In this document: piece by piece, positions 11,640 through 60,285 of the stretch | Numbering within the stretch: the stretch's first letter is position 1 | How the letters are laid out: each line of letters starts with the position of its first letter | NCBI GenBank assembly: GCA_011939005.1 | Contig: GCA_011939005.1_4858.1 | Reading direction: 5' to 3' (one strand) | Origin: a phage | Length of the DNA stretch: 64,000 bases | Translations under genes and position numbers: made by a program | The notes under the pieces: generated by a model | Seen by the model: the letters and a program-made list of their open reading frames with translations, nothing else | Told to the model about the DNA's origin: nothing | The model's database searches: none

Positions 11640-11652
11640 GTTGTTTCCTTAC

Positions 11653-12063: not shown

Positions 12064-12085
12064 AATAGCACCTCAATTTTTTGAG

Positions 12086-43329: not shown

Positions 43330-43361
43330 AAAAAGAAAGCCTCTTCCCCGTGGGGAAGAGG
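43330..43361 (-). terminator. rho-independent terminator
   Basis: Hairpin cctcttcccc-gtg-gggaagagg with T-run on minus strand. Confidence 0.6.
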
Positions 43362-43416: not shown

Positions 43417-45585
43417 CTATTTCTTTGGCCGCACCCACGGTTTAGGGGCGGATTTGGTATACGGATTACATTCCATCATCTTACCGAGGTAGGCATCGTA
43501 ATACACGAAGCGATCGACATAGAACTTCTCCACCGGTGCACTACTGGTAGCCGATTTCACCCGGTTGCGTTCCACAGCGAGGCTAATCGCCCCGGTAGGT
43601 GCGGGTTTTAGCGTGAACATTACCGCGCGGTTGTAACGCCAAGTGTCGTGCACAATATCAAACTCCGATACACAGTGTGCCATGATACCAAACAATGTGG
43701 TGGCTGGTAAGTTGGCTACAGCATCGCCGTATGGTGTTCCCACCAAACCGCCGGGTATGTTTTGCTTTTTGAACAGCGTACCTGAAATAATCGTACCTAA
43801 GAACTCCACAACTACAGGCTTGGTTGGGTCGGTGACTTTATCTATCCCATCCGCACTGGCCAATCGGTTGGCATCTAAATCTGCGAGGTAGTCGAGGAAC
43901 TCTTGGTACTCGTCGGTAACATTCGGTTTCACCGTTCCGACGGATACCCAGTTGACGATACTTTTATTCCCACCGACAGCTTCGCCTGCCATCCCAGGGC
44001 GAGTCCATGACATCCCGTCTTCACGACCGTAGACATAGACTGGCGAGCCGGTAGCCGGGGTGTTCCATTGCTCGAACGCTGTATATCGTCCCGGCTGGCC
44101 CCAATCCCCACCCGGACCGCCATAGTAGCGACTCTGGTAGCCGGTAAATTGCGCGACGACTAACTGGGTAGCACCGCCTTTGTCACGGGACCCAGCTAAG
44201 CCGTTACGGTTATTGGTGCCGCTGGGCACCGCCGCGCCTGGCCCGAGAGGCGCACCACCAGCTCCACCGATCTTGGTGGTGCTAAACGCATAGTAGTCGC
44301 CCCCACCCCCACCACCGGCGATGGTGCCGTAGTTTTCGATGGTGACTTTGCCACGGAAGGTATCGCTAATGTGGATTGCGTCAGCTCCGTCCGCTGATGT
44401 GTTCGCAGGCATAGAGTAGACCACACCCGAACCACCACGACCAAGAATGGTTCCCCGGTTAACGAAGTTCCAAACCACCTCGCCAATTTGCGGCAATTCG
44501 TCGATAACGAACGTCGGTTTCAGGTTGCTGTCGCGATAAACGAAAGCCCCCGCATCTACGGTCACGTTAACAAACAAACGCCCGCACGCCGCATGGTTGG
44601 TCAACGTTGTGGCCCAGTAGCTGTCCGAAAGTTGCGACGTAGTTGTGTAGTTCAGGTTAAGGGTTTGCTCGTTATCTTGATAGCGTGCTACATTCAACGT
44701 GGCACTGCCCATGACTTTGTACGAACCCTCTACGGGTGCCAATTGCACTTGTCTCGGCCACTCGCCTGCCAGGTTCTCTACAGGAGCAATTTCGTTTACA
44801 TCAAAAACACTCCGAATGCCGAGTGTCTCGATGGCCAGAGCATCGTGCAGGCTACCGGTGAAATCATCCGGGACGTATGTGGTTTTGCCTGCATATGTCT
44901 CGAGTTTGTTACGTGAGAAGAACACATACTTCGTTCCAAACATCCCGCTCCCCGGTCTAGCGGTCAAAGCTACGACGCTGTTATACGCAGAGGTTTGGCC
45001 TATATCCTCCGGGGACATCGGGGCGCTGACATCGACTTTATCAAGATCCACGATCCGTTTGGTTGCATTAGAGTAGAAGTTAATCCACTGCTGCTTATTC
45101 GCAGCCTTTAGCGTGAAAATGATATTGGTAACAGTGTAGACAGTGTTGATATCCACGTCACCGTTTATCACATCTAGCGTTTGGCTGCCGTACCAGATAA
45201 GACTTGTCTGTTTCGCCTGGAACGTGATGCGCGCAGCATTGTTTGTCCAAGTGATGGGCAGGTCTTCAAAGTCGTCGGTTAAAAAGGTAATCCCTAGTAG
45301 AGTGTCTAAATGCGGCAACAGTTCGTGGATGGACGCACAAGTGGGAATGGCATCCAACTTAACCTTGGCGAAATAATCAGCAATATTTTGCTTCGTGACT
45401 TGGGCCGTAATTTGACCGTAACTAGAATACCCCGGACCCCCTGTCAGTGTGACGTCTAGGGTTTTTTCGTCACGATGCGCCACGGACACCAGGCGTACGT
45501 TAGCGGGGTCTACTGCTTTGGCGACCGCGTTTTTACGGTTGAGCGACCGAATCACGGTCGCCACTAAATCGGGAGTGTATGACAT
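43417..45585 (-). CDS. tail fibre-like protein with Gly-rich segment (722 aa)
   Basis: ATG with AAGGTG RBS; N-terminus resembles the family domain; GGGGGG and Gly-rich stretch; C-terminus SAPKPWVRPKK parallels SKTAPVPWYPAL of 45600..46919. Confidence 0.8.
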   Translation of the reverse strand: MSYTPDLVATVIRSLNRKNAVAKAVDPANVRLVSVAHRDEKTLDVTLTGGPGYSSYGQITAQVTKQNIADYFAKVKLDAIPTCASIHELLPHLDTLLGITFLTDDFEDLPITWTNNAARITFQAKQTSLIWYGSQTLDVINGDVDINTVYTVTNIIFTLKAANKQQWINFYSNATKRIVDLDKVDVSAPMSPEDIGQTSAYNSVVALTARPGSGMFGTKYVFFSRNKLETYAGKTTYVPDDFTGSLHDALAIETLGIRSVFDVNEIAPVENLAGEWPRQVQLAPVEGSYKVMGSATLNVARYQDNEQTLNLNYTTTSQLSDSYWATTLTNHAACGRLFVNVTVDAGAFVYRDSNLKPTFVIDELPQIGEVVWNFVNRGTILGRGGSGVVYSMPANTSADGADAIHISDTFRGKVTIENYGTIAGGGGGGDYYAFSTTKIGGAGGAPLGPGAAVPSGTNNRNGLAGSRDKGGATQLVVAQFTGYQSRYYGGPGGDWGQPGRYTAFEQWNTPATGSPVYVYGREDGMSWTRPGMAGEAVGGNKSIVNWVSVGTVKPNVTDEYQEFLDYLADLDANRLASADGIDKVTDPTKPVVVEFLGTIISGTLFKKQNIPGGLVGTPYGDAVANLPATTLFGIMAHCVSEFDIVHDTWRYNRAVMFTLKPAPTGAISLAVERNRVKSATSSAPVEKFYVDRFVYYDAYLGKMMECNPYTKSAPKPWVRPKK

Positions 45586-45599
45586 GGTGACACCTTAGT

Positions 45600-46919
45600 C
45601 TATAGCGCTGGATACCAAGGGACCGGGGCAGTTTTGCTATATGGACTGTAGACCATATAGCCGCCTTTGCTTGGGTCGTAATAGATGAAATAGTTACAGT
45701 AATTCGAGTAGAGGCTCGTCATTTGTTTGGATTGGTATCCGTTACGGTATAGTCCCTGGTAAGTAGTAGCTGATGTCGTGGTGGTGTAAGCAGTGTGGTA
45801 CAGTACCCGACGTCGGTTAGCAATACTTTCTTGGAACATCTCTTCGGTCGGAAACGCGTGTTGCATCAGCCGTCGAATACTCCCGGTACAGTATCGAGTG
45901 CCATACGGGGAACCCGTTAAATCATCCGCAGTTTCAGGCGATTCTGCCCGAGTCAACACGTACTCGTTTTGATACAACGTGACGCTCATCGAATTTGGGC
46001 TGGTTTCCCGGAAACTCATGTAACGCGCATAACGTTCGACGTCCTCTTCCTGCGCCAAATAGGCCACGTTATTTTTCGGACCAAAGTGCAAGAAGAACGG
46101 ACGGCGGAGATTACCCATATCCTCAGGTGGCGTCAACTTCACGCAGTAATTGTACTCCCCACGCATATCAGGGTCTAAGCCTGGGTTGTTATTGCGTGTA
46201 GCGACATACCCATAGAGGTCATACGGGTTATCAGTAGCAGCATTACCGATAGTGAACGGGATGCCCGACCATGCCGACAGCGCCGCGATGAACTGGGTCA
46301 TGTACGAGTTACTGTTTAGTCGCAGCGGGGTACCCATCTGGATATTGATTATCTGTTGGGTGTACATGCTCCAGTCGAGTCGATAGACCGTGCTGTAAAC
46401 ATCCATGGGTTCCCAAGCTCCGGTTTCGGTGGTGTGGTACAAGTCGGCAAAGCTGGGCTCTTCACGAATAAAGCTAATAGGAATGTGACCCGTGAATGCG
46501 GGGTTATCCGATTTAATCGCCACCGTCCGATCGCCCGTTGCCACAGTGATCATTGCAAACTGGCTGTCAGGATACGTTAAATCGTCAGCAGTAAGCACCA
46601 GCCCACAAGCTGCGGAAATCCGGTCGATGATGTCGCGGTAGACCGTCGCCCGATAAGGTACTTTAACCGGTACGCTGACGCCTTTAAAATACTGCGAAAG
46701 GTTTAAGCGGTCGTAGTAGATGTCCATCTTACCGCTGTAACCACCACCCTGTAATCCGTTTACCACGATACGGCTGTTGCGACCATCGCGCAAGGCATTG
46801 GTTAAAGGACCTTGTAATAACGCCACGTTGGTTGCGTTGAGCGGTTTCTTGAGCTGCGGGTTATCACGATTAATCTGATCCCAAACCAGTTGCATGACAG
46901 GTTTGTTATAGTTGATCAT
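45600..46919 (-). CDS. family paralog, C-type (439 aa)
   Basis: N-terminus MINYNKPVMQLVWDQINRDNP and VYYDRLNL motif shared with other members. Confidence 0.8.
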   Translation of the reverse strand: MINYNKPVMQLVWDQINRDNPQLKKPLNATNVALLQGPLTNALRDGRNSRIVVNGLQGGGYSGKMDIYYDRLNLSQYFKGVSVPVKVPYRATVYRDIIDRISAACGLVLTADDLTYPDSQFAMITVATGDRTVAIKSDNPAFTGHIPISFIREEPSFADLYHTTETGAWEPMDVYSTVYRLDWSMYTQQIINIQMGTPLRLNSNSYMTQFIAALSAWSGIPFTIGNAATDNPYDLYGYVATRNNNPGLDPDMRGEYNYCVKLTPPEDMGNLRRPFFLHFGPKNNVAYLAQEEDVERYARYMSFRETSPNSMSVTLYQNEYVLTRAESPETADDLTGSPYGTRYCTGSIRRLMQHAFPTEEMFQESIANRRRVLYHTAYTTTTSATTYQGLYRNGYQSKQMTSLYSNYCNYFIYYDPSKGGYMVYSPYSKTAPVPWYPAL

Positions 46920-46929
46920 TGCAACGTCC

Positions 46930-46965
46930 TAAAAAAGAAAATAGGCCCCGAAGGGCCTATTTTTA
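46930..46965 (-). terminator. rho-independent terminator
   Basis: Hairpin taggccc-cgaa-gggccta with T-run on minus strand. Confidence 0.55.
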
Positions 46966-47143
46966 GCTGTTATGGTGAAGTACGCTATCCCTTTAACTCC
47001 AGCTGCTTCGACGTCAGTTTGGATAACCACGCGGCCGTACGCTTTATTAGCGAAATTGAATCAGCGCTGATTCGACCTGCGAGTTCAGGGTTATCCCTTA
47101 CGACTTGTTGGCAGAGCAGTTCCAGTGCGCTATACAATCCCAT
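46966..47143 (-). pseudogene. decayed remnant of a family paralog (N-terminal about 30 codons joined out of frame to C-terminal about 28 codons)
   Basis: Intact RBS and ATG at 47143 encode MGLYSALELLCQQVVRDNPELAGRISADSI (compare MGLYTEPSMELLCQQIVRDNPGLAGKITADSI at 50555); region 46965-47070 is about 80 percent identical to 54051-54155 (3' end of 54050..54877) with a 1-nt deletion. Confidence 0.5.
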
Positions 47144-47154
47144 GAAGTCTCCTG

Positions 47155-48054
47155 TTAAGGCAGAACGAGTTCAAGTACCGCGATAGAACGTATTGTATTG
47201 GTTTCGTATCTACCGTACGACGGCGACTCTGGGTAGGGTGGACGGTTGTACCACTGATTGTAAATGTCAGACATAGCCGCAAAGAATGCAGATTGTTGGG
47301 CAGTAGTCGAATCGATTGAACCGACCGGAAGGTCGTCAAAGCGCGGCAACTGCCCACTGTAGTTGTACAGGCGCGCGAAAGTGTTAAACCACTCACCGTC
47401 GAGATACAACTCACTGTTACCGCTTCTAACGTTAGTCGTCCAGAATCTGTAGTCGAACAAATACGGCAAGCGCACCACGTATTCGTAACCGTTCTTCGCC
47501 ACCGTGCGGCGTTGGTTACGTGCAGTGGCCCAGCTCGGTACAAATCCATTGCCATCCTGGCCGTACATCAGCCCCTGGTTATAAATGAACTGCGGGCTAG
47601 CGTATATTATCGAGTTATCGGACATAAACAGAATACGGTTTTTGTAAATGAATTTATGCCAGGCACCAACGGCGGAACTGAACATATTCACCACGAGGCT
47701 GTTCAGTTCCGCGTTAGTGAATAACTCTGCTGGCGTTACTGTTCCAAAGTATCCAGCGTGCCAGTCGCCGTATAACAGCTTCTGGGGGCCAGGCCCGGTG
47801 TCTAAAAAGAACCCTTGGGCGGTAGGGGTGTTGAAGACACGCTCACCGTCTTTAACCGCAGCTATCCAATAACGGTAAGTGGTGTTGTTTTCCACAGCGT
47901 TGTCTTCGTACGATGTAGCGTCACCCGGAAGGGTTGCCAGAGGCGTTCCCGGTGCATTAACATCAATGGTGGCGTTGCCCGGCGTCTTGCGATAGATTTC
48001 AATGTTATCGAGCGCCTGTGGCTTCCGTTGTGCAAAGTTTAATGTAATAGGCAT
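47155..48054 (-). CDS. module protein B2 (299 aa), FN3-like N-terminus
   Basis: ATG at 48054 with GAGGAT RBS; paralog of 50569..51492 (IEIYRK...TYRYW, DTGPGPQ..GYFGTV). Confidence 0.75.
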   Translation of the reverse strand: MPITLNFAQRKPQALDNIEIYRKTPGNATIDVNAPGTPLATLPGDATSYEDNAVENNTTYRYWIAAVKDGERVFNTPTAQGFFLDTGPGPQKLLYGDWHAGYFGTVTPAELFTNAELNSLVVNMFSSAVGAWHKFIYKNRILFMSDNSIIYASPQFIYNQGLMYGQDGNGFVPSWATARNQRRTVAKNGYEYVVRLPYLFDYRFWTTNVRSGNSELYLDGEWFNTFARLYNYSGQLPRFDDLPVGSIDSTTAQQSAFFAAMSDIYNQWYNRPPYPESPSYGRYETNTIRSIAVLELVLP

Positions 48055-48056
48055 GA

Positions 48057-49046
48057 TTAATCCTCGATAAGCTCGATTACTGGAATCCAAATACCGCCCA
48101 CGGTCGCACCAGGGACATGTTGTATACGCTGGAGGTTATCCACGGTATCAGTGGAATCCGTCGTCGCTGTTCCGCGCGTCAGCCCCAACTTACGGTCTGG
48201 GTCAAACTCCTGACAATGCACCCCACGGCCACTCACCACCGATCCATTTCCGAATATGCTGATGTTCGACCGCGTTAACAGGGACATCACTTTTTTCTTT
48301 GCTGGGAACCAGGTACTTATCCCATAGATGAGTCGGTTGTATTCGCTATCGGCAGTATACGGTGACACGTCATGGATTTTTCCGTCCCACTGTGCATCGA
48401 GCGCCATGACCGGACTTTCACTGTCGTGTGTTAAACCGCGCAGCAATCGCATCCGATAGCGGTCACCCAACCACGTAAACTCCCCAGACTGGTCAACGTC
48501 AGGTAAATCACCATGACCGCCTTCCGGACCAGGTCCCGCCACACCGTACAGCAAACCCGCGTTATAAATCGCATCACGGCTATACAGCGTGTTGCCGTTC
48601 ACACGAAGACCACTAAGCAGATACAGAATTTTACCGTCTAGCTGGAACTTAAACAAGTACAGCTTAACAGTTGGGTCAATTCCAGAAAGGGCCACAAACC
48701 CTGGCGGATAATCACCCACGCTAGGCAATTCATCGTACGCCACATTCCCGTAATACGCAAAGCGGTCATCACCGTACTGTGGAGTCACGATGCCGATACC
48801 GCGACGGTTCTGAATCAGAATTGATTTCTGCGGACTGAACAGTGTCCGGCTTCCCACTGTCACGGTGGTCATGTAGTAATACGTTGTCCCCAGTATCGCT
48901 GTTCGGTCAGTATACTCAGTTTCCCCGTTAGTGAACGTTGCCAGAGGTTCAGGTAATGCCGTACGCACCAGAGGTTTGGTGTCGCGGTACAGCTTCACGG
49001 TCGAAGCCCCAGGGTTATTGTTCGTCCAACGAATTGTAAAAGCCAT
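48057..49046 (-). CDS. module protein A2 (329 aa), FN3-like N-terminus
   Basis: ATG with AGAGGTA RBS; paralog of 51502..52500. Confidence 0.8.
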   Translation of the reverse strand: MAFTIRWTNNNPGASTVKLYRDTKPLVRTALPEPLATFTNGETEYTDRTAILGTTYYYMTTVTVGSRTLFSPQKSILIQNRRGIGIVTPQYGDDRFAYYGNVAYDELPSVGDYPPGFVALSGIDPTVKLYLFKFQLDGKILYLLSGLRVNGNTLYSRDAIYNAGLLYGVAGPGPEGGHGDLPDVDQSGEFTWLGDRYRMRLLRGLTHDSESPVMALDAQWDGKIHDVSPYTADSEYNRLIYGISTWFPAKKKVMSLLTRSNISIFGNGSVVSGRGVHCQEFDPDRKLGLTRGTATTDSTDTVDNLQRIQHVPGATVGGIWIPVIELIED

Positions 49047-49058
49047 TGTCGTTACCTC

Positions 49059-50555
49059 TTATTGGAATCCATCCAACTCACCGTTAGTATCGCCCAGAGT
49101 AATTTTTGAAGGTTGGGCGATTTGGTCAGTCGTGAGAATAATCGGTCTAATCTTAACGCTAGCCATGCCTGTTACCGCGACGGAATATGCACGTTCATCA
49201 TTGTCCGTCGTGGCAAGCAGAGGACGTGGTGAGTCTGATGACGCTTCCCGTACCCAGGCAGGGGTGGCAGTTTCGGTGTTGTCGGTGTTGAAAACTAACG
49301 GACGTGGATTCGCTGCAGCGGAGGTTTCCGTAATCGGCACCACACGAAGCGATTCATTTTGGTCGATGTCCGTCAGAGTAACCACGGACGGTGCCCATGT
49401 TAGTTCTGCACCTTCGTCAATCAACGGCACAGGTTCATTGGCAACATCAATCATCTCCAAGATTGGCCAAAAGCCAGAAGAGGTGTAGATGTAGGTGTAT
49501 GAACGATAGCTCCCACTGATAGACTGGTAATACGCTTGGTCGGCACCGAACTGGTGTCGTAACCACACGTAATCCAGGAAGTTAGCATCAGTCGTGCTAA
49601 GAGTTCCCCATTCCCCATATACGTTCACCGACCCCAATTTGCTGGTCAGTGACAGGATAGAGGTGATTGACGGCGGTTTACTCCAATCAGGCGCGGCGGC
49701 GTTCTCGGTGTAATACGGGATAGACATTCTGAAATAATGCGTTCCTTCATCATCCCGTTTTACCATGTATTTCAACTGTTCAACATCGACAGGTGTGTAA
49801 GTCGACTTCGGGCGAGGTCCTGCGTCTCCGGAATCAAATATTGCACCCTTGTTGTACAGGTCTGCCCAGGTAACGTTGCAAATCGCACGGGTCGGAACAA
49901 ACACTACCGCCCCATTCAGAAAGAATTTGAGCCACTTGATAGCGTAGCGGTTAGGCCAGTTGGTGCCGTTATAGAGGGCATACACCATTTCATCAGATGT
50001 GAATAACTCTTCCGCGCTTACCAGCCCAAAAAATCCGTATAACTCATTACCGGCCATTAATCCTTTTGGCCCAGGGCCCGACTTCGGATACATCGCAATC
50101 GGTTCGTAAACATAGGTCATCTTGCATGACCCGGTATAGCACAAGGAGTTAGCGTGCGCCGTCAGAGTTACAGTTTCTGGCGTAGCGTATTTCATTAATG
50201 CAACGTTTGGACTGGTGATGTCACTCGCGGTTAAGTTCAACCCGTTCAATTCATTGAACGCCGGTAACGCTTCCGCATGGGTTTGTGCGCTACGTGGAAT
50301 ACTCACCATCTTCGGGCCAGACTTGAACAGACTGGCCAGATTCAACCGGTCGTAATAGACCGTTATTTCCCCAGCAAATCCTTTACCGGGTTTACCTACC
50401 AACGTAATCTGTGTGTTTCGTCCGTTAACGTTTTTCGCAACAGGAACACCCCTGACCCCAATGGAGTCAGCGGTGATTTTTCCTGCTAAACCGGGATTGT
50501 CACGCACAATTTGTTGGCAGAGCAGTTCCATTGAAGGTTCTGTATACAACCCCAT
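49059..50555 (-). CDS. module protein C2 (498 aa), family N-terminal domain, C-terminus ...NGELDGFQ
   Basis: ATG with GGAG RBS; TVYYDRLNL motif; about 27-aa C-terminal repeats. Confidence 0.8.
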   Translation of the reverse strand: MGLYTEPSMELLCQQIVRDNPGLAGKITADSIGVRGVPVAKNVNGRNTQITLVGKPGKGFAGEITVYYDRLNLASLFKSGPKMVSIPRSAQTHAEALPAFNELNGLNLTASDITSPNVALMKYATPETVTLTAHANSLCYTGSCKMTYVYEPIAMYPKSGPGPKGLMAGNELYGFFGLVSAEELFTSDEMVYALYNGTNWPNRYAIKWLKFFLNGAVVFVPTRAICNVTWADLYNKGAIFDSGDAGPRPKSTYTPVDVEQLKYMVKRDDEGTHYFRMSIPYYTENAAAPDWSKPPSITSILSLTSKLGSVNVYGEWGTLSTTDANFLDYVWLRHQFGADQAYYQSISGSYRSYTYIYTSSGFWPILEMIDVANEPVPLIDEGAELTWAPSVVTLTDIDQNESLRVVPITETSAAANPRPLVFNTDNTETATPAWVREASSDSPRPLLATTDNDERAYSVAVTGMASVKIRPIILTTDQIAQPSKITLGDTNGELDGFQ

Positions 50556-50568
50556 GGCTTTTACTCCG

Positions 50569-51492
50569 TTACGGTAAGACTAATTCAAAAGCAAAGAATA
50601 TCGTGGCCGAGTTCCCGACACCTGCGGTGTTACTAATCACCATAGGCACGGTGCCATACGCATAAGCGAATATGTTGTTGCTCCACAAAGGAGCTAATAC
50701 AGCGGCACCTGACTCATTCGGCTGCACAGTCGCGCCTTGTCTTGCAAGTGAGTCAATCGCACCAAGACCGAGGGCTGCGAACTGTGCACCGACAGGATAC
50801 AAACGGCCCATTGTGTTTCGCCATTCACCGTTGTTGTAATCCTGTCCTGAGAGAACAGCGTCGTACGGGACTGCGTAAGGTAATCGGATACGGTACGTAC
50901 GACCATCCTTCGTGACCTTACAATCTTGTTTAGTCGCCGTGGCTCCCTGCGGAACAATACTTCCGACATCATCGGTCCCGTACATCATACCGTACTGATA
51001 CGCCATTTGTACCGAGTTGGTTTTCGAATGCATCGTCGCTGGGAAGAAGACAATTCTCCCACGGAAAATAAACTTGTGCCATTCCTGAGGGTCGTAGACA
51101 AACATGTTTCCCTGCTGTGCAGTCAACATAAGCTTCAGCTCGGCGGTATTAAAGAACTCGGTATTCGGTACTGTACCGAAATAACCTGAAGCCCAGTCAC
51201 CACGCAAAATAGTTTGCGGACCCGGCCCGGTGTCCGGATAGAATCCTTGCGTAATCGGATTGCCGATAAGTCGTTCACTGTCCTTCACAGCAGCTACCCA
51301 ATAACGATAGGTTGTATTCTTCGTCAGAGTATCGATATTATCTACGAACTCTACCGCGTTGCCCGATAAAGTTGCGTGGGGTGTGCCTGGATTGTAAACG
51401 TCGATTGTTGCGTTCCAACCTTCCTTGCGGTAGATTTCAATCGCGGTAAGACCTTTGCTGGCTTGGGACGGCCAGCTTAACCGTATAGTCAT
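50569..51492 (-). CDS. module protein B1 (307 aa)
   Basis: ATG with AAGGGG RBS; paralog of B2. Confidence 0.8.
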   Translation of the reverse strand: MTIRLSWPSQASKGLTAIEIYRKEGWNATIDVYNPGTPHATLSGNAVEFVDNIDTLTKNTTYRYWVAAVKDSERLIGNPITQGFYPDTGPGPQTILRGDWASGYFGTVPNTEFFNTAELKLMLTAQQGNMFVYDPQEWHKFIFRGRIVFFPATMHSKTNSVQMAYQYGMMYGTDDVGSIVPQGATATKQDCKVTKDGRTYRIRLPYAVPYDAVLSGQDYNNGEWRNTMGRLYPVGAQFAALGLGAIDSLARQGATVQPNESGAAVLAPLWSNNIFAYAYGTVPMVISNTAGVGNSATIFFAFELVLP

Positions 51493-51501
51493 GACTGCCC
51501 C

Positions 51502-52500
51502 TTACTCGACCAGTTCAAAGATAGGGTAGTAACGCCCTTTCGTGGTGGGTGATAAATAGTTTATACGCTGAATCGTGGATACGGGTGTTCCACCGGCATT
51601 GTTAAAAATGCCACGATGGACCACACGGTCTTCCGCGGTGTCGTGTTCCATACAGAGAACTCCGGCACCGAAATACGTTGCCGAGGTTCCCAAATTAGCC
51701 TGCCCCAGATAAGTATAACTGTTCGCTGCCCAGTTAGCCCAACGCTGTTTCCTCGGCACCTCGTTAACCATCGTGTAAAGTAAATCGTTATACTCACACG
51801 GGTTGGTTAGAGAAGCGATTTCATCGTGGGTTTTCCCATTGTAGTCAGCTACGAAAGGATACGCAGGAGACTCGCTAGACGTCGTCAGGCCGCGAGGAAG
51901 ACGCATAATGTACGTATCCCCTTTGTGGACTATCTTAGCGTCTTGTGGAGTGGCCGGTAGCGTTCCATGGCCGTTCTCTGGGCCAGCATCGCCCGTACCA
52001 TAGACTAAACCAGCTTGATAGAGGGAAGCCCAGTCCACAGGCGTATTCGGGAACTGCGACGTGTTAGATAGCATGTAATAGATCTTCCCGTTTCGGGTAA
52101 ATTTATACAACGCCACACGATCGGTTAACAGGTTAGGGAACATCGCCAAAAATGCAGGTGGCATTTGCGACGGAAGCCACTGTTCGTCGTAAGGAACCTC
52201 ACCCATAAACCCTAAACGGTCGTTGCCGTTTAGAATAGTCATTGGGCCTATCCCGCGTTTTACCTCAATGGTATATTTCTGGCTAGACGACGCTACTGTT
52301 TTACCGTTGGCGGTTACCGTCAGAAGGTAATAATAGGTTGCGCCTGGTGTGGCGGTGGTATCACGCCATTCTGTCTCGCCGTTTGAGAGCGTTGCAATCG
52401 GTTCAGGCAAAGCGCTTGGTGTGATATCTTTAACATCACGGTAGATTTTTACTACCGTAGAGATTACGTTTGGATTTTTCCAACGCAAAGTAAAAGACAT
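51502..52500 (-). CDS. module protein A1 (332 aa)
   Basis: ATG with AGAGGTA RBS; paralog of A2. Confidence 0.8.
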   Translation of the reverse strand: MSFTLRWKNPNVISTVVKIYRDVKDITPSALPEPIATLSNGETEWRDTTATPGATYYYLLTVTANGKTVASSSQKYTIEVKRGIGPMTILNGNDRLGFMGEVPYDEQWLPSQMPPAFLAMFPNLLTDRVALYKFTRNGKIYYMLSNTSQFPNTPVDWASLYQAGLVYGTGDAGPENGHGTLPATPQDAKIVHKGDTYIMRLPRGLTTSSESPAYPFVADYNGKTHDEIASLTNPCEYNDLLYTMVNEVPRKQRWANWAANSYTYLGQANLGTSATYFGAGVLCMEHDTAEDRVVHRGIFNNAGGTPVSTIQRINYLSPTTKGRYYPIFELVE

Positions 52501-52511
52501 AGATGATACCT

Positions 52512-54002
52512 CTACTTAAAGCCGTCCAGTTCACCGTTAAGAGACGTTAACGTTGTCTTGTCAGGGGGCGTATACATTTCAGCGGTAGCCGCAATAGGTT
52601 GAAAATCGACAGTCTTCGGCAGCATTAATGCAGGCGGATGCAGTGCGAAACTGTTTTCTGAAGTAACGGCCACAGGTTGAAAATCGACAGTCTTCGGCAG
52701 CATTAATGCAGGCGGATGCAGTGCGAAACTGTTTTCTGAAGTAACAACTACCGGTTCGAAATCGGTAGTATCTGGATTACCGAGCACCAACGGCTTGAGA
52801 CTAAACGTGTTTTCTGCGGACACGCTGCACGGTTGGAGGCTGTAATCTACCGCGCCGTGGATATCTTCTAAGCCCAAGGTAACCGTGGACTTATCCACCA
52901 ACTCCAGCACCGGGAACCAGTAGTAGTTGCCCGCACTCGATGATTTTTCTAAGTTTGTCCAACTTGCTCCAGACAACGTCGCCATGCGATGATTGGCGAC
53001 GTTGGTGTTCAGTGTATCTTTCAATAAACAGAACAGCGTCCAGTAACTGTTAATCGGTTTGTCCCACGTTCCATTATACAGAAAGTTGAACATCTCAAAC
53101 TCACTACCTGCTAACTCAGCGGCAGTTGGGGTGCCGCTGACGTATGGGTCTTTCCCGGCACTAGGTAGACGAACGCGGAAGTAAAACCTTTTGTTGTCTG
53201 CGCCTGTAAAGCTAATGATGCGTCCCTGGTTAACGGGCGTCGCCGCAGGGTATTTACCATTATCATCTGTTCCGTAAACGAGTCCGTTTGTATATAACGT
53301 ATTCCAGGAGATGGAGCTAGCGACAGGACTGATCGGAAGGTAAATAACCCTACCCTGGTAAAAGAACTTGTACCAACCTTCGGCACCAGAATGTACCGGT
53401 GGTAACGCACCGGCCGATATAGTGGCATTAAGAAGTTGAGAGTGTGTAAACAACTCTGCAATTGTGGTTGTTCCGAAATAACCCGCGATAGTGTTACCTT
53501 GCAGCAACGTTTTAGGGCCAGGTCCAGAATCGGGGTAAATTGCACCGCTCGGGACGGTATAACGTATCGTTAAGCTGCCTATAAACGCAGGGCAATTACC
53601 TGAGATATTTAATTTCAACGTCTGCGGCGAAGCGCTCGGTTTAGGTAAACTTGCGTCAGGTGACTGCAAATCAGAAGCAACTAATGTAAGCCCCAATGCG
53701 TCGTTTATTGCAGGTAGCGCGTCTCGTACCGTTAAGACTGTATCTTTGATAGCCACAGTCGGCACAAAATTAAATAAAGTGGCCAGGTTAATCCGGTCGT
53801 AGTACACGGTAACATTACCTTGTACACCTGTCCCTGGATACCCGGTGAAAACAGCTTTGGTGTTACGTTGGTTTAACGTAACTGAAGTTGGGCCGCTGGT
53901 TAAAGCAGCGATAGCCGGTGTCAGCTTAACAACTAAATCAGGGTTATCCCGATTGACTTGGTCGTATACAAGCAGTGCCGACTCCTTCGAGTAAAATAGC
54001 AT
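52512..54002 (-). CDS. module protein C1 (496 aa), C-terminus ...NGELDGFK, contains 78-bp tandem duplication
   Basis: ATG with GGAG RBS; family N-terminus MLFYSKESALLVYDQVNRDNP; TVYYDRINL. Confidence 0.8.
   Translation of the reverse strand: MLFYSKESALLVYDQVNRDNPDLVVKLTPAIAALTSGPTSVTLNQRNTKAVFTGYPGTGVQGNVTVYYDRINLATLFNFVPTVAIKDTVLTVRDALPAINDALGLTLVASDLQSPDASLPKPSASPQTLKLNISGNCPAFIGSLTIRYTVPSGAIYPDSGPGPKTLLQGNTIAGYFGTTTIAELFTHSQLLNATISAGALPPVHSGAEGWYKFFYQGRVIYLPISPVASSISWNTLYTNGLVYGTDDNGKYPAATPVNQGRIISFTGADNKRFYFRVRLPSAGKDPYVSGTPTAAELAGSEFEMFNFLYNGTWDKPINSYWTLFCLLKDTLNTNVANHRMATLSGASWTNLEKSSSAGNYYWFPVLELVDKSTVTLGLEDIHGAVDYSLQPCSVSAENTFSLKPLVLGNPDTTDFEPVVVTSENSFALHPPALMLPKTVDFQPVAVTSENSFALHPPALMLPKTVDFQPIAATAEMYTPPDKTTLTSLNGELDGFK
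52597..52752 (-). repeat. near-identical in-frame tandem duplication (2 x 78 bp) inside CDS 52512..54002
   Basis: ggttgaaaatcgacagtcttcggcagcattaatgcaggcggatgcagtgcgaaactgttttctgaagtaac occurs twice with period 78 bp; encodes TSENSFALHPPALMLPKTVDFQPVAV twice. Confidence 0.8.
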
Positions 54003-54017
54003 AGGGACTCCGCATCG

Positions 54018-54046
54018 CCAAAAGAGGGGGCTCCGAAGAGCCCCTA
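54018..54046 (-). terminator. rho-independent terminator
   Basis: Hairpin ggggctc-cgaa-gagcccc followed by short T-run on minus strand. Confidence 0.5.
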
Positions 54047-54049
54047 CAC

Positions 54050-54877
54050 TTAGCTGTTATAGTGGTAGTACGCCACGCCTTTCACGCCTTCCTCATCGAT
54101 GCCCGTTTGGACAACCACGCGGTCGTACGATTTGTTAGCGAACTGAGCGGTGGATGTCGGCACATCCTGAACGGTGTTGCTGTTCAGTGGCCCCGCGTAG
54201 TTCGGAATACCCAGGTCATCCAACACCTTACGCAATCCAGCCCACTGCGGTAGGCCAGAAGCATCTACTGTCAGTAGGTTTTTATACGCGGTAAAGTCAA
54301 TACCATACGTCAACAAATCAATACACTTCTTACCGAGAGACGGTGAAATAGGCTCTTGAATCGCATTCAAGACATCCGATTTCACCGAAGTGTCTAGTAC
54401 CGGTAAACCACGGTTATAACGCAACGTCGCAGAACCGATATAAGCCGGAGATGTCGATAGCGCTACGATGTTCTGTGTATTGGTGTAATTTGGGGTATTG
54501 GGACCCGCCAGTGGGAGGTTATAGATATCGATTGCAGAGAAGTTTACTCCGTAAGTATCCAAGAGCACCGAAAAGGCTGAATGGAGGTTGGGCGCGTCAA
54601 ACGTGACGAACTGCGCCTGGACAGAAGGACCCCACGGCAATAACCGCGCTAAGTTCACACGGTCGTAGTAAACGGTGATTGCGTCTCGAAATCCGGAACC
54701 CTGAATACCGCGCAAGCGTGCCGACGTATTGCGGTTGTTGGAAGCTGCATTAACGGGAACCTGTGTCACTTTCTCCACGTAGCAGTTTGCCGGCGACGCT
54801 TTAATAGGTAGGTTTGGGTTATCCCGGTTAATGAGGTCAAAGACCAACTCGTTTGACGGCTTAGCATAGTTGATCAT
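54050..54877 (-). CDS. family paralog P7 (275 aa)
   Basis: ATG at 54877 with GAGGTA RBS; N-terminus MINYAKPSNELVFDLINRDNP; TVYYDRVNL. Confidence 0.75.
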   Translation of the reverse strand: MINYAKPSNELVFDLINRDNPNLPIKASPANCYVEKVTQVPVNAASNNRNTSARLRGIQGSGFRDAITVYYDRVNLARLLPWGPSVQAQFVTFDAPNLHSAFSVLLDTYGVNFSAIDIYNLPLAGPNTPNYTNTQNIVALSTSPAYIGSATLRYNRGLPVLDTSVKSDVLNAIQEPISPSLGKKCIDLLTYGIDFTAYKNLLTVDASGLPQWAGLRKVLDDLGIPNYAGPLNSNTVQDVPTSTAQFANKSYDRVVVQTGIDEEGVKGVAYYHYNS

Positions 54878-54880
54878 CAA

Positions 54881-55768
54881 TTATACCTCGCTTGGATCGT
54901 CCAGATCGTTGAACTGGAGATACAACGTTCCGACGATGGTGGTACAGGTAACAGGCAGTTTCAACGCCAGCACATACTTGTACTTCGCGTTTGTCGGCAT
55001 TGCAACAGGGTCATTCAGACCAACACTGATAACCTCCGCGCCCGCCAAACCGTAGGAAGCGGAAGTGGTCGCTACCCATGCAGTACCCGTGATATCTTTC
55101 AGCAGGTTAACCATATCCGTTAACGGCTGTCCGGACAGAATACCCGGCTTGTATGCCAGCAGAGCATCTCGGTACTTAGTGAAGTTGTACGGGTAGGAAT
55201 AAACCTCTGCAATGACCGCAGTAACATTTTCGGAACCCATCTGACCGTTCGGGTATTTCAGACCGGTCAGGACGTTAGTGGTGACTGCAGAGACTAACGA
55301 CTCATCACCTTTCACGACTTTAAATGTCGCCTGTCCAACCCAACCGATAGACTCTGGATGTGCAACAACACGCACAGTACCTTCGGTCTTATCACCGTTC
55401 CATTCGATATCTGCGTCCTGCAGGTCAGCTTCTTCCAGAACAAAACCGTAACGTTGGTTCAGTCCAGGAATGGCCGCATACAAGGTTTCGTTGGATGGGC
55501 CGATCGCCAACGTGTCACCGATCAGCACTAACAAGTCTTCGACTTTCATGCGGTTGTAGAAGACATTTTTCTTACCCGACCAGGTAGAGCCCGTTACCCC
55601 ATCTGCCGTAATTTTAATTTGCGTGTTACGGTTAGTCAGCGTTTCCTTCTCCGTACCACGGATGTCCTTTGGCGAGGACCAGATGATGTCAGTCATCTTA
55701 ACAGCAAGCGAGTTCTGTGCGTTCACTGCTGCCAACAGGACGTCTTTAGAAGGTTGATAAATAGCCAT
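54881..55768 (-). CDS. family paralog P6 (295 aa)
   Basis: ATG with AGGAAT RBS; conserved N-terminal domain, divergent C-terminus. Confidence 0.75.
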   Translation of the reverse strand: MAIYQPSKDVLLAAVNAQNSLAVKMTDIIWSSPKDIRGTEKETLTNRNTQIKITADGVTGSTWSGKKNVFYNRMKVEDLLVLIGDTLAIGPSNETLYAAIPGLNQRYGFVLEEADLQDADIEWNGDKTEGTVRVVAHPESIGWVGQATFKVVKGDESLVSAVTTNVLTGLKYPNGQMGSENVTAVIAEVYSYPYNFTKYRDALLAYKPGILSGQPLTDMVNLLKDITGTAWVATTSASYGLAGAEVISVGLNDPVAMPTNAKYKYVLALKLPVTCTTIVGTLYLQFNDLDDPSEV

Positions 55769-55778
55769 TCGCTAATTC

Positions 55779-56618
55779 CTAGTTGTTGTAGTGCAACATA
55801 CACTCGCCGATTACTTTCGGGTCGTTCTGAATGCCGGTAATCAGCAATACGTTATCGTACGCTTTATTGGCGGTCGCCAACTCACTCGTTTTGTAGCGGG
55901 TAATTGTGCAGTTCGTCGGATCAAACGACGGTACCCCACGTGCGACCAATGTGGCCATCAGATTGGACGTGTAACCCAAATCAAAGTTACTTCCTACATC
56001 CATTCGCCCGTTCTTAAACGAGGCCATAACCTGCACTTCATCGGTAAAGTCTTCCCCGTACGTCAAGAAGCCCATGTATTTCTTACCAGTGCTTGCTGCT
56101 GCAGGGTGGTTCAAAGCCAACAAGATGTCGTTTACCACGAGGTCTTCGAGGCTATTCTTACCCCGGATAGACATAAAGGTGATGCTGCCAGTGTATTGGA
56201 TACAGCTAGCGTTAATACGCATCGTGTTGTTTACGTTCAGATAAACGTATTGTTCTGGGATATCATCTGCAACCAGGTTTAATCCATAACGACCGTTCAG
56301 GTTCTGCGCAAACGCAGTACGTTTCGACTCCACGTTCAACCAACCGTAGGCATTCGGTGCAGTTACCTGAGGTGTCATGTTCTTAAATAAGTCGTTCAGC
56401 GACAAGCGCTTATAACGGAACGTCTGGGGACCGATATAGCCACGACCTTGACGACCACGAATGATAATCTCAGTATTGGCACCGCTTGCTGTCGGTGTGA
56501 TTGCTTTCGGCGTACCGATGATAGCATTGTCTAAACCCATCGGTAGCACAGCATCCGGGTTTTCGGCATTAATCGCATCGTACAGATATTGTCGCTGAGA
56601 CAGACTATATAAAGCCAT
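55779..56618 (-). CDS. family paralog P5 (279 aa)
   Basis: ATG at 56618 with perfect GAGGAGG RBS (track start 56636 is TTG). Confidence 0.75.
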   Translation of the reverse strand: MALYSLSQRQYLYDAINAENPDAVLPMGLDNAIIGTPKAITPTASGANTEIIIRGRQGRGYIGPQTFRYKRLSLNDLFKNMTPQVTAPNAYGWLNVESKRTAFAQNLNGRYGLNLVADDIPEQYVYLNVNNTMRINASCIQYTGSITFMSIRGKNSLEDLVVNDILLALNHPAAASTGKKYMGFLTYGEDFTDEVQVMASFKNGRMDVGSNFDLGYTSNLMATLVARGVPSFDPTNCTITRYKTSELATANKAYDNVLLITGIQNDPKVIGECMLHYNN

Positions 56619-56634
56619 AATAGCCTCCTCGGCC

Positions 56635-56680
56635 AAAAAAGAAAGGAGTAGCCGGGAGGAGGATTTCCTCCTCCCAGCGA
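56635..56680 (-). terminator. rho-independent terminator inside the paralog array
   Basis: Hairpin gggaggagga-tt-tcctcctccc followed by T-run on minus strand. Confidence 0.55.
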
Positions 56681-56687
56681 GGCCTAA

Positions 56688-57599
56688 TTAGGCATTAAAG
56701 TGCAGGTACATGATGCCCTGGAAGTTGGTGCACAGAGTGTCATCCAGCTGCAGCAGCAGAACCTGGTTGTAAGCAGTGTTTGCACCTTCAACCGGTTTCT
56801 TAGGTTCGTCGCCTGAAGCAGTGCCATCGTCAGTAGTAGAACCAACGTACAACACGTTAGCACCTTTCAGGTTATAATCCGCAGGCTCATCAGATGCAAC
56901 CCACAGTTCCGGCACAACTTTATTCAGCTCAACCGGGAATGCAGAGTCGCCAGCGATAACACCTTTCGCCTGTACTTTCAGGAATGGTGCGATTGCTGTG
57001 CAGTCTACACCGTAAGAGTAGATGTAACCCTGACCCTTCGCTTCGCTTGGACCATCTGGGTAAACCAGGCCGTCGAGCTTGGTTTGTGTTACCACCAGAC
57101 TCAGACGTTCACCAACCTGAGGCTTAGCACCGATTTTAACCGGGATGCTGCCCAGATAAGCGTAGCAGTCTTCTTTGAAGGTAATGACGTGGTCAACCGG
57201 TGCTGGGTCCGGATCGTTCGGGTTAGTCAGCGGCGGGTTGGTATTTTCCGGAATAGCCGCCGGAACAATATCATCTTCGGTCAGTTTCAGACCGTATTGG
57301 GTGTTCAGGGTCGTCAGCAGGTCGGTGGTGGTTTTCGGCAATTTAACGTCGAGGTATGCCGTTACATTACGGAACAGCGCACCGCCTTCCAGGCGATTAT
57401 AAGTCACGTCCTGAGTACCGATGTACCCGGAGTTCTTTTTCGCAGTCAGGGTCATGCTGGTATTGCGATCAGCACCTTCATCGCTAATAGGGGTCGGTGT
57501 GCCGAGCGTTATTTTAGAAAGTTCCAGTTCTGCGTCTGGGTTTTTCTCATTAATAAAATCCAGAACCAGCTTATCTGACGTTTTGTTTAAAGGTTTCAT
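56688..57599 (-). CDS. family paralog P4 (303 aa)
   Basis: ATG with AAGGAAG RBS. Confidence 0.75.
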   Translation of the reverse strand: MKPLNKTSDKLVLDFINEKNPDAELELSKITLGTPTPISDEGADRNTSMTLTAKKNSGYIGTQDVTYNRLEGGALFRNVTAYLDVKLPKTTTDLLTTLNTQYGLKLTEDDIVPAAIPENTNPPLTNPNDPDPAPVDHVITFKEDCYAYLGSIPVKIGAKPQVGERLSLVVTQTKLDGLVYPDGPSEAKGQGYIYSYGVDCTAIAPFLKVQAKGVIAGDSAFPVELNKVVPELWVASDEPADYNLKGANVLYVGSTTDDGTASGDEPKKPVEGANTAYNQVLLLQLDDTLCTNFQGIMYLHFNA

Positions 57600-57620
57600 T
57601 CTTACTTCCTTTACTCAGGA

Positions 57621-58466
57621 TTAATCAGGGTCGTTGTAATGCAAATACAAACGCCCGCCAAAATTCAGACAGTACAACGACAGCTCCACAATCAGCACGT
57701 TGTCGACTGCTGGGTTGGTTGGTAATTCCGCTTTGTTACGCCCGTTATAGACGACGACGGCTTCACGAAGGTTAAAGTCGATTGGGTTACGGTACGTTGT
57801 CCAGTTATCACCGGTGACCGTTTTGAGAATCTGCGCCAGACGTTCTGCGGTTATCGCAGCACCTAGTCGTTGAAATTCCTCCGCGAAATTATCAAAGCGC
57901 CAGGGATACGAATAAACTGCACCTTGACCGACCTTGATGTTAAAATACGGATACTCGTAAGGCATCACTGTTAACGGTTCGAAGTTTGCAGGAAGCAACG
58001 CATCGCCTGGTAACAGCTGTACCTGTTGTTGCCCTATCCAACCTAAAGAAGAGGGCGTGGCAATCAGATCCACACGCCATGTCTTCCTGTCGATTTCGGT
58101 ATTCACCACATCTGCAGGTTTAAGGCTGAGACCGTAATACTGGTTAATTAACCCGACCACGTCATGCATCTGGTAAACAGCATCGAGACGTGCAGGAACA
58201 CGTAAAGGTTGAATCCCGTCTGGGTCGGTAAACATGTCTGCGAAGTCAACACGATCGTAATAGACGGTAGTGGCACCGATAGCATTAGCCGTGGCCAATG
58301 CCTGAATGCGCACCATCGCGTTGTGACCGTTAGCTTTTGCCAAGTCTTCGTCAGACGTTGGAATCGCAGGGACACCAAAAACAACATCCTCGACTTTTAA
58401 ATCGAGATTGTTTTCGACGTTAACTTCCGCGATAATAATCTTTTCAGCTGTGGCTAAAAGTGGCAT
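57621..58466 (-). CDS. family paralog P3 (281 aa)
   Basis: ATG with AAGGAT RBS. Confidence 0.75.
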   Translation of the reverse strand: MPLLATAEKIIIAEVNVENNLDLKVEDVVFGVPAIPTSDEDLAKANGHNAMVRIQALATANAIGATTVYYDRVDFADMFTDPDGIQPLRVPARLDAVYQMHDVVGLINQYYGLSLKPADVVNTEIDRKTWRVDLIATPSSLGWIGQQQVQLLPGDALLPANFEPLTVMPYEYPYFNIKVGQGAVYSYPWRFDNFAEEFQRLGAAITAERLAQILKTVTGDNWTTYRNPIDFNLREAVVVYNGRNKAELPTNPAVDNVLIVELSLYCLNFGGRLYLHYNDPD

Positions 58467-58476
58467 GTCAAAATCC

Positions 58477-59319
58477 TTATATCGGGAGATAATGAAGGAT
58501 GAGATTACCGGCGTAGTTGCTGTCCGCAGCTAGCTTGATAATCGCCACACGCTGATAATCGGGGTTGTAACTATCGTTCGGTGTGACTGAAGTTATCCCC
58601 ATAAATCGTGCACCTTGGAGTGCAATTTGTTCAGGTTGCGCATTCGCCCCCGTCACATATGCAAACTTTAATGGCACCACTTCATTCAACAACTCAACAT
58701 CCGCTGCAGTGATTGCACGGTTGTAAACCCAATCGGTGGTGAACTGTTTTTGCAGTTCAGTCCAATCGTAACCATACGCCACATACTCGGCCTGTGGTTT
58801 ACTAGCAACCACGAACGGTGCGATTATTGCGCTGAGGTCAACATCCGTCACCACATCCGCCAAGTTCGGGAAGAACTTCGCAAAGCGTAAACGGAAACCA
58901 CCTTGCCAGGCCAAGCAACCGGGCTTAATAGTCACATCGATTAACCAGCTTTCTCCCAAATCTTTTACTGACTGGTCAACGATATCGTCGGCAACTAAAG
59001 ACAAGCCGTATTTCGCATTCAGAAACGGCAACAACTCAGAGAGTTTATTTACCGGGTCGGCAACGACTACCGGTATTACGTTCCTGAACAGAATTTCCAT
59101 TTCGATACGGTCGTATTCGAGCGTAACGTTGCCTTTGTAGCCCTTGCCGTTCAACCCGTATAAGAGCACACGTGTATTCCGGTCAGCGCCAGGCGTTTGG
59201 ACAGACTCAGGGAAGCCAGTTGCAACCTGCTCCCATGTGAGTGGATTGGCCGTTAATCCGTTCTGTCGGTTAATAGCATCTAACAACATCTCTTTCGAGG
59301 GCTTATCGTAAATAGACAC
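58477..59319 (-). CDS. family paralog P2 (280 aa)
   Basis: GTG start with strong AGGAGGG RBS; N-terminus MSIYDKPSKEMLLDAINRQN. Confidence 0.75.
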   Translation of the reverse strand: MSIYDKPSKEMLLDAINRQNGLTANPLTWEQVATGFPESVQTPGADRNTRVLLYGLNGKGYKGNVTLEYDRIEMEILFRNVIPVVVADPVNKLSELLPFLNAKYGLSLVADDIVDQSVKDLGESWLIDVTIKPGCLAWQGGFRLRFAKFFPNLADVVTDVDLSAIIAPFVVASKPQAEYVAYGYDWTELQKQFTTDWVYNRAITAADVELLNEVVPLKFAYVTGANAQPEQIALQGARFMGITSVTPNDSYNPDYQRVAIIKLAADSNYAGNLILHYLPI

Positions 59320-59329
59320 CTATACCCTC

Positions 59330-60243: not shown

Positions 60244-60285
60244 AACAAAAAAAGAAGGGGAGCCGAAGCTCCCTTTTCTTCACGA
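60244..60285 (-). terminator. rho-independent terminator
   Basis: Hairpin gggagc-cgaa-gctccc flanked by A-run and T-run. Confidence 0.55.

Follow-up and report, generated by a model that had tools for sequence, protein, structure and literature searches.

A probable recombination scar between two DUF7941 paralogs at the downstream end of the C-B-A gene array of a Seoulvirus

The DNA analysed in this study (the window; 64,000 nt) represents a Seoulvirus, i.e. an SPN3US-like jumbo phage of Salmonella, and shares 96-99% identity with SPN3US, SEGD1, the SPFM and SPLA isolates, and EC001. Its gene order is that of SPN3US gp111-gp121, and it includes an array of related genes that corresponds to the "paralog family B" of SPN3US (Pfam DUF7941). 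Comparison with Pfam profiles revealed that the S genes of the array match DUF7941 over its full length; the C, G and H genes match only the N-terminal part of this profile. The array is composed of the following elements:

59330..54050, minus strand: seven short S-type genes (S1-S7)
54002..50569, minus strand: triplet C1-B1-A1
50555..47155, minus strand: triplet C2-B2-A2 (C2, 49059..50555; A2, 47155..48054)
between A2 and gene G, minus strand: the scar described below
45600..46919, minus strand: gene G (SPN3US gp112 in the RefSeq numbering, gp154 in the original numbering)
43417..45585, minus strand: gene H (SPN3US RefSeq gp111)

SPN3US is a genetic model for the phiKZ-like giant phages. According to the papers devoted to its array (Thomas et al. 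2016, PMC5105663; Ali et al. 2017, PMC5694885), paralog family B consists of 17 consecutive virion-protein paralogs (gp138-gp154 in the original numbering), which were reported to be head-associated on the basis of a tailless mutant, and the run was described as possibly the largest paralog family within any single phage genome. The scar is located between the 16th and 17th genes of this run (gp153/gp154 in the original numbering; gp113/gp112 in RefSeq), in a spacer to which the SPN3US annotation assigns no gene. Targeted term searches detected no mention of the remnant in either publication or in the genome papers on SPFM and SPLA, nor do these papers give an account of growth or shrinkage of the paralog run.

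In gene H, the N-terminal DUF7941 segment is accompanied by a "phage tail fibre adhesin" domain (Pfam GP38; E=7e-18, residues 373-553); the gene also matches a PHROG tail-fibre host-specificity family. These domains point to a putative role in receptor binding; the neighbours from the same family, gp138-gp154, were reported to be head-associated. Strong terminator-like hairpins are predicted on the minus strand after S7 (54027..54044), after H (43340..43361) and upstream of the S-gene run (60258..60273). Together with the hairpin that follows the scar, they split the paralog run into the blocks S1-S7, triplets and G-H.

We performed a detailed inspection of the spacer between A2 and G, which revealed the following features:

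47157..47155, minus strand: stop codon (TAA) of A2
47149..47153, minus strand: ribosome binding site (RBS; AGGAG), 5 nt upstream of the ATG, inherited from a gp115-type C gene
47143..47141, minus strand: ATG opening a 52-codon ORF
47143..46985, minus strand: 52-aa ORF (MGLYSALELLCQQVVRDNPELAGRISADSISLIKRTAAWLSKLTSKQLELKG), with its current stop (TAG) at 46985..46987
47054..47143, minus strand: 5' stub, i.e. C-type DUF7941 codons 1-30, orthologous to SPN3US gp115
between 47127 and 47126, minus strand: window-specific 6-nt deletion (ACCCGA) inside the 5' stub
47053..47054, minus strand: junction of a window-specific 76-nt deletion (1 nt microhomology), which puts the two pieces out of frame
46963..47053, minus strand: 3' fragment, i.e. 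the last ~30 codons and stop of an S7-type DUF7941 gene (FANKAYGRVVIQTDVEAAGVKGIAYF.HNS plus stop)
46978..46979, minus strand: ancestral 1-nt deletion (TACT-TCAC vs TACTAYCAC), which shifts the last four codons and the old stop
46963..46965, minus strand: ancestral S7-type stop (TAA), now out of frame
46928..46963, minus strand: intrinsic-terminator-like hairpin (AAAATAGGCCC-TTCG-GGGCCTATTTT) with a T tract
46917..46930, minus strand: RBS (AGGA) and ATG of gene G, after the hairpin

Among the 15 array genes, two gave significant blastn matches to the scar. The 5' 74 nt share 74% identity with the 5' end of C2 (E=1e-8), and the segment 47054..46963 shares 78% identity, with one gap, with the last 93 nt of S7 (54050..54880; E=8e-17), including the AACAGCTAA stop context common to both. 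The reading frame of the S7-type piece is shifted by -1 from that of the ATG. The product of the 52-codon ORF matches phrog_3589, the profile of the C-type family, at positions 1-35 only (E=2e-9), and has no Pfam match. The initial annotation had described an intact RBS and an ATG at 47143 that open about 30 C-type residues, and these run into sequence about 80% identical to the 3' end of gene 54050..54877 with a 1-nt deletion and the YYHYNS stop context out of frame. Each of these elements was recovered, the old TAA (46965..46963) being displaced by the 1-nt gap, and the proposed nucleotide alignments to array paralogs proved significant for both pieces. Of the limits originally given for the feature (46966-47143), the start is correct; the 3' end lies 3 nt further, at the old TAA (46963).

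At the site of the 1-nt gap, three intact homologs (S7 of the window, gp143 of Phobos and gp153 of Caitlin) read TACTA(C/T)CAC. The gap is common to all seven other independent assemblies inspected (SPN3US, SPLA3, SPLA5c, EC001, L012, L013 and L015), and it is therefore not a sequencing error in the window. Because all versions of the scar share it, this deletion predates their divergence.

Both pieces align with genes of the window; other genes fit better as their parents. The 5' piece is about 95% identical to SPN3US gp115 by alignment count (90-93% over a span that includes the end of A2), as compared with 74% for C2, and the RBS and its spacing are identical to those preceding the intact SPN3US gp115. 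It is also near-identical to the 5' ends found in JN03 and in the metagenome contig L015. The gp115 gene, the third C gene of SPN3US, which starts MGLYSAPELELLCQQVVRDNPELAGRISADSIG, is missing from the window together with gp114 and gp113. The coding part of the 3' piece is collinear with the 3' ends of gp143 of Erwinia phage Phobos and gp153 of Caitlin, sharing 65-70% of its nucleotides with Phobos gp143 and 72-78% with the S7 genes of JN03, Caitlin and the window itself. In the terminator and spacer preceding the G start codon, identity reaches 91.5% with the Phobos S7-G spacer (gp143-gp144), vs approx. 57%, i.e. chance level, with the region downstream of the window's own S7, whose terminator is different and Caitlin-like. 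The gene order in the Derbicusvirus phages Phobos and CR5 is S7-G-H-(C-B-A)n; Caitlin (Machinavirus) has the order S7-(C-B-A)3 and lacks G, H and the scar. Given the Phobos-like downstream spacer and the Derbicusvirus order S7-G-H, the 3' piece can be regarded as the stump of an S7-type gene that is still attached to G. The resident C2 and S7 were therefore rejected as parents, on the basis of identities and the downstream spacer, in favour of a gp115-type C3 gene and an old S7 copy (S7'). The segments originally proposed as parental (50460-50555 and 54050-54160) are only paralogs of the real parents.

In every Seoulvirus that possesses G, the scar separates this gene from the last A gene; its length, counted from the ATG to the old TAA, differs as follows:

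L013 (a 242.5-kb metagenome contig): 350 nt; ORF of 127 aa, in frame
SPLA5c, P0003 and L014-L016: 263 nt; ORF of 91-98 aa, in frame, with an 87-nt in-frame deletion relative to L013
window: 181 nt; ORF of 52 aa
SPN3US, SPLA3, L012 and most isolates: 123 nt; ORF of 30 aa
EC001/Lh1B: 36 nt; ORF of 11 aa, with only 5 stub codons kept in EC001

These five sizes occur among genomes that are more than 95% identical (95-99% in the flanks). Contigs L014-L016 have exactly the gene order of the window and carry the 98-codon form; across the spacer, the window differs from them only by the 76-nt deletion, the 6-nt deletion and one SNP. The 76 nt lost in the window are present in SPLA5c, L013, L014, L015 and L016. 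Judged by these alignments, the fusion and the 1-nt deletion are old and genus-wide, and only the 76-nt and 6-nt deletions are specific to the window genome. The window's version of the scar, with its junction, is absent among 50,697 phage genomes, in which no record covers at least 80% of the region in one piece. The exact junction string has no match in IMG/VR; the conserved 3' string has none in GTDB genome contigs, and its IMG/VR match is SPN3US only. A full-length gene at this position, which the initial annotation had proposed to seek in related phage genomes, was not found among the relatives, the 127-aa chimera of L013 being the longest version.

In the light of these comparisons, the feature is very probably a non-coding recombination scar, i.e. 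a pseudogene at the downstream end of the Seoulvirus C-B-A array, built of pieces of a gp115-type C gene and an S7-type gene. In the least eroded relatives the pieces form an in-frame chimera, in which C codons 1 to ~69 (...ECTVYY(D/N)) are followed by S7 codons from -47 to the end (GPLNSNTV...). The ORF of L013 reads ...GKGFSEECTVYYN up to the join and GPLNSNTVADV...GVKGMAYF beyond it, so that about 69 C-type codons are joined directly to the last 47 S7-type codons; the sequence of intact S7 genes at the position of this join (-47) is ...NYAGPLNSNTVQDV. For the ancestral junction, YYD/GPLNS can be reconstructed: the codons GAT GAG TCG of SPLA5c and AAT GGG CCG of L013 are few changes away from GAT GGG CCG. 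The C genes read YYD-RL and S7 of CR5 reads QYD-GPL, which makes a short microhomology at TAC GA(C/T) plausible.

The chimera may have been generated by illegitimate, microhomology-level recombination at the YYD/(Y)DGP codons. Such an event would have put an S7'-terminator-G-H block behind the triplet array, replacing the rest of a C gene, and the product would combine a left part resembling Caitlin/JN03 (S7-terminator2-triplets) with a right part resembling Phobos (S7'-terminator1-G-H). An internal deletion or a recombination scar between paralogs had been suggested initially; the latter part of this suggestion agrees with the fusion, and the internal deletion of a single full-length paralog does not, L013 being an in-frame chimera. 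G and H share 50% and 37% aa identity with their Phobos counterparts, respectively, which is no closer than other array genes. This equal divergence indicates that the fusion event is old, and it does not allow a donor to be named; a recent horizontal transfer of G-H from a Derbicusvirus is ruled out by the same comparison.

Another account of the origin, which we consider rather unlikely, is that the scar is a decayed eighth S-type paralog ("S8"), whose 5' end was converted by C genes and whose middle was deleted, with no illegitimate C::S7 junction. The N-terminal DUF7941 segment is common to the S, C, G and H genes, and homologous exchange at 5' ends is plausible and observed; after enough deletions the outcome would look alike, and this account might apply to the very first step. 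However, the longest version runs as a C-type sequence to ...ECTVYY and continues directly with GPLNSNTV, with no S-type residues 73-229 in between. Moreover, the number of S genes is exactly seven in the window as well as in Phobos and Caitlin, and the S gene next to G in Phobos is S7 itself.

We also considered whether the short ORF, or the 98- and 127-aa fusion ORFs of the relatives, may encode a functional small protein, i.e. a minimal DUF7941 module comprising the conserved N-terminal segment and a C-terminal strand region, the window form being a truncated but still useful N-terminal peptide. In favour of this reading, no variant has lost the RBS or the ATG, and neither the original fusion nor the 87-nt deletion disturbed the reading frame. 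The 98- and 127-aa ORFs are intact, recur in several assemblies (3 to 12 contigs), are called as genes, match DUF7941 and may be expressed. Between the 5' part of L013 and gp115, divergence amounts to 14% and pN/pS to 0.29, a value that is confounded by pre-fusion divergence and later recombination and that would be compatible with some past constraint on the fusion protein, or with divergence older than the fusion.

Such a function is nevertheless very unlikely, as it is argued against by (i) the selection data, (ii) the unrelated ends of the ORFs and (iii) the existence of viable isolates with the 30- and 11-codon forms. A comparison of the S7-type part of L013 with that of L015/SPLA5c revealed seven nonsynonymous and no synonymous substitutions (pN 0.066), vs six nonsynonymous and 14 synonymous substitutions in the neighbouring gene G of the same genomes (pN 0.006; Fisher p=0.002); the test on the 3' part rests on seven substitutions only. 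Purifying selection, as expected for a family B gene, was thus not seen in the S7-type part in this small sample. The C-terminal ends of the ORFs are unrelated between the variants (...LELKG, ...ISWS, ...AKNRP and ...YHNS before the respective stops), and the terminal YYHYNS motif has been lost from all forms through the shared 1-nt deletion. The viable, isolated phages carry forms of 52, 30 and 11 aa, the last with merely five stub codons in EC001, so neither length nor frame is conserved (127, 98/91, 52, 30 and 11 aa). Intact neighbours cover the N-terminal ~150 residues of DUF7941 (profile positions 1-150 to 1-276, the S-type genes covering all 276), and the 52-aa ORF, with no Pfam match, does not; the SPN3US spacer carries no annotated gene.

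Three properties expected of a pseudogene were observed: homology to intact genes is limited to fragments, the frame is disrupted relative to the parents (76 nt at 47054/47053 and 1 nt at 46979/46978), and the relatives show progressive, lineage-specific loss, with five size classes and overlapping independent deletions. On this sequence evidence, the product of the 52-codon ORF is probably junk, if it is made at all. The 91-127-aa ORFs that have been called "virion structural protein" at this position are likely pseudogenes, which should serve as a warning to annotators. The scar differs from SPN3US paralog family B, from whose members both of its pieces derive, in that it is not a member gene; it consists of 30 + 30 codons that are out of frame, and is variable or nearly absent in relatives.

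The proposal that the frame breaks are sequencing or assembly errors, or are bridged by programmed frameshifting to yield a protein spanning both pieces, could draw on the two frame changes within 180 nt (suggestive of homopolymer errors) and on the 76-nt deletion being unique to the window, but it has hardly any credibility: the first frame change is a 76-nt deletion rather than a homopolymer slip, the 1-nt deletion occurs in all eight independent sequences compared, repair of all frames would give only about 60 residues, and programmed -1 frameshifting would require two separate shifts, with no X_XXY_YYZ slippery heptamer at 47060..47050 (TCA ATT TCG CTA) and the second shift needed 75 nt downstream.

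The recombination scar appears to have decayed by small deletions, two of which are bracketed by direct repeats that can be recognized in the window:

47066..47076, minus strand: left copy of direct repeat D1 (GTCGAATCAGC)
47002..47012, minus strand: right copy of D1 (GTCGAAGCAGC)
47124..47133, minus strand: left copy of direct repeat D2 (ATAGCGCACT)
46979..46988, minus strand: right copy of D2 (ATAGCGTACT)

D1 is an imperfect pair, GTCGAA(T/G)CAGC, with a spacing of 64 nt, and it brackets the 64 nt missing in the SPN3US-type genomes; their version can be derived from that of the window by removing the 64 nt enclosed by the D1 pair, with exact microhomology of CAGC. D2, also an imperfect pair, ATAGCG(C/T)ACT, with a spacing of 145 nt, brackets the 145 nt missing in EC001/Lh1B (181 - 36), and the EC001 version can be derived from that of the window by removing the 145 nt enclosed by the D2 pair. 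The 76-nt deletion of the window shows only 1 nt of microhomology. It overlaps the SPN3US-type deletion; the two are independent rather than successive.

Since the fusion, the scar has lost 1 nt (in all versions), 87 nt in frame and then, depending on the lineage, 76 + 6 nt (window), 140 nt (SPN3US type) or nearly its whole length (EC001). These losses would have proceeded by replication slippage or microhomology-mediated joining, with no selection at the protein level. The SPN3US-type and EC001-type deletions can be interpreted as typical repeat-mediated events, a mechanism read from their end points. Deletions between short direct repeats, produced by slippage or illegitimate recombination, are classic in lacI of Escherichia coli and rII of phage T4. 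The SPN3US-type and EC001-type deletions resemble them in lying exactly between imperfect direct repeats of 10-11 nt; the 76-nt deletion of the window, with its 1 nt of microhomology, differs.

The hairpin downstream of the scar has a stem of 11 pairs (5 GC), the loop TTCG and the tail CTTTTTT, and is contained in both the MFE and the centroid structures of the fold prediction. No stem differences occur among the Seoulvirus variants, and Phobos shares the GGCCC/GGGCC core; the loops read TTCG, TGAA or TTCA. The hairpin therefore shows two sequence properties of an intrinsic terminator, a GC-rich hairpin followed by a T run, and a conserved stem with a free loop. It is the strongest terminator-like site between the triplets and G, and has been kept in every variant and in Phobos. 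An Rfam scan of positions 46500-47600 gave a sub-threshold match to sbrA only, on this hairpin (26 bits vs the gathering score of 45), and a known non-coding RNA was rejected in favour of chance or the terminator shape. A scan with a sigma-70-like model, which does not describe phage-specific promoters, detected no promoter in the scar, and shuffled sequences yielded more sites than the region did; SPN3US-like phages use their own multisubunit RNA polymerases. The S7-type fragment was already followed by this hairpin and by G and H before the fusion, and the predicted intrinsic terminator and the RBS of G are likely the only parts of the region that are still functional today.

The 5' end of the scar coincides with the site at which the number of triplets differs between near-identical phages. 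In comparison with SPN3US, the window lacks 3.35 kb, from codon ~30 of gp115 to the SPN3US scar (the stub, gp113, gp114 and most of gp115), and its positions 47054-52697 are collinear with SPN3US from codon ~30 of gp115 upward. The stubs of SPN3US and SPLA5c start with MGFYSSTALELLCRLIQRDNPQ, i.e. with the start of a fourth C gene (C4) that is intact in JN03; codons 1-22 of the SPN3US stub equal the JN03 C4 start, and beyond codon ~22 the SPLA5c stub is gp115-like (AGRISADSIG-ECTIYYD). In L015, SPLA3 and the window, the stub already resembles gp115 at its start and directly follows a gp116-type A2 gene. The markers of the switch differ between two of these: GGTCGAAT...TTCAATT, of the old-stub type, in the window, and GGAAGAAT, of the gp115 type, together with the SPN3US-type deletion, in SPLA3. 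JN03 carries C4-B4-A4 (3.3 kb) where the others have S7'-G-H (3.6 kb), with identical flanks and with the stop of A4 or H as the right boundary.

Genomes that are 95-98% identical differ by whole 3.4-kb C-B-A units, with boundaries in the first ~90 nt of the C genes or the stub. In the simplest reading, the triplet number changed on at least two independent occasions, by unequal crossovers that paired the stub with the 5' ends of C genes. In this process, the gene-like 5' stub would serve as a homology target for unequal crossing-over with the intact 5' ends of C genes, by which 3.4-kb triplets would be added or removed; the window and SPLA3 may each have reached the two-triplet state by a separate crossover. 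The order and direction of the events, i.e. gain or loss of triplets and the donor of G-H, are deduced from mosaic patterns and should be treated as provisional. The view, expressed in the initial annotation, that the scar testifies to turnover of the array is well supported, as genomes more than 95% identical hold five scar sizes and differ by C-B-A triplets.

It is conceivable, but very unlikely in our opinion, that the 5' stub (the RBS, the ATG and 20-30 codons of C type, present in every lineage except EC001) is retained as a terminal homology "landing pad" of the array. If so, it would allow the population to add, drop or swap cassettes (C-B-A triplets vs G-H) with no damage to G, and the stub would represent a built-in cassette-exchange site, kept by lineage-level selection for variability of the virion surface, H being the gene that carries the Gp38-like adhesin domain.

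Tandem arrays of viral paralogs, e.g. poxvirus K3L, change their copy number by unequal homologous recombination in the manner of an accordion. The variation of whole 3.4-kb C-B-A units among near-identical Seoulviruses is similar; it differs in that the units are diverged (C1, C2 and C3 are 40-75% identical) and that one of the partners is a pseudogene stub. The genomes of tailed phages are characterized by mosaic joints, exchange of cassettes, and alternative modules flanked by shared sequence. The alternative occupation of one site by S7'-terminator-G-H (3.6 kb) in SPN3US and C4-B4-A4 (3.3 kb) in JN03, with the same flanks, fits this pattern, but the left joint in Seoulvirus lies inside a coding region rather than at a gene boundary, and left a translatable chimera. 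A pseudogene scar, decay by small deletions and copy-number change by unequal crossing-over are all known phenomena, and none of them points to a new mechanism. The value of the locus lies in an unusually complete natural series and in the light it sheds on the assembly of the SPN3US paralog run: it records (i) the fusion, within a C gene, of the end of the triplet array with the G-H block found next to S7 in Derbicusvirus, and (ii) the decay of this junction by small, often repeat-flanked deletions, and (iii) it marks the place where near-identical phages differ in triplet number. The variable spacer also provides a cheap PCR or sequence marker for the typing of Seoulvirus lineages.

Several other irregularities were observed within or next to the array. 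JN03 (L009) contains a second, similar scar (12072..12569), in which ~77 5' codons of a gp115-type C3 gene are in frame and then frameshifted, and are fused to the last ~25 codons of an A3-type gene, i.e. a collapsed C-B-A triplet. ORFs of this type (P0004 and P0005; 77 aa), with the first 15 codons C2-like, are present in other assemblies. The 3' part of C1 (52512..54002) contains a perfect 78-nt (26-codon) tandem duplication (52596..52745, minus strand; 1.9 copies, 100% match), owing to which C1 is 1491 nt long in the window and JN03, vs 1413 nt in SPLA3, SPLA5c, EC001 and L015, a further length polymorphism of recent origin within the array. The annotation of SPLA5c (L003; 11545..12619) splits the B-type gene of its last triplet into two ORFs (11545..11943 and 12029..12619); this may be another disrupted array gene. 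The A2 orthologs of L013 (3578..4477) and L015 (7090..7989) show pN of 0.080 vs pS of 0.065, as compared with pN/pS of 0.1-0.2 for G and H, which suggests that A-type genes may be under diversifying selection or subject to mosaic recombination. Finally, the tail-assembly-chaperone and endolysin genes are located on the array strand in Seoulvirus and on the opposite strand in Caitlin, Phobos and CR5, an arrangement that implies a putative inversion next to the end of the array where G-H or the last triplet sits.
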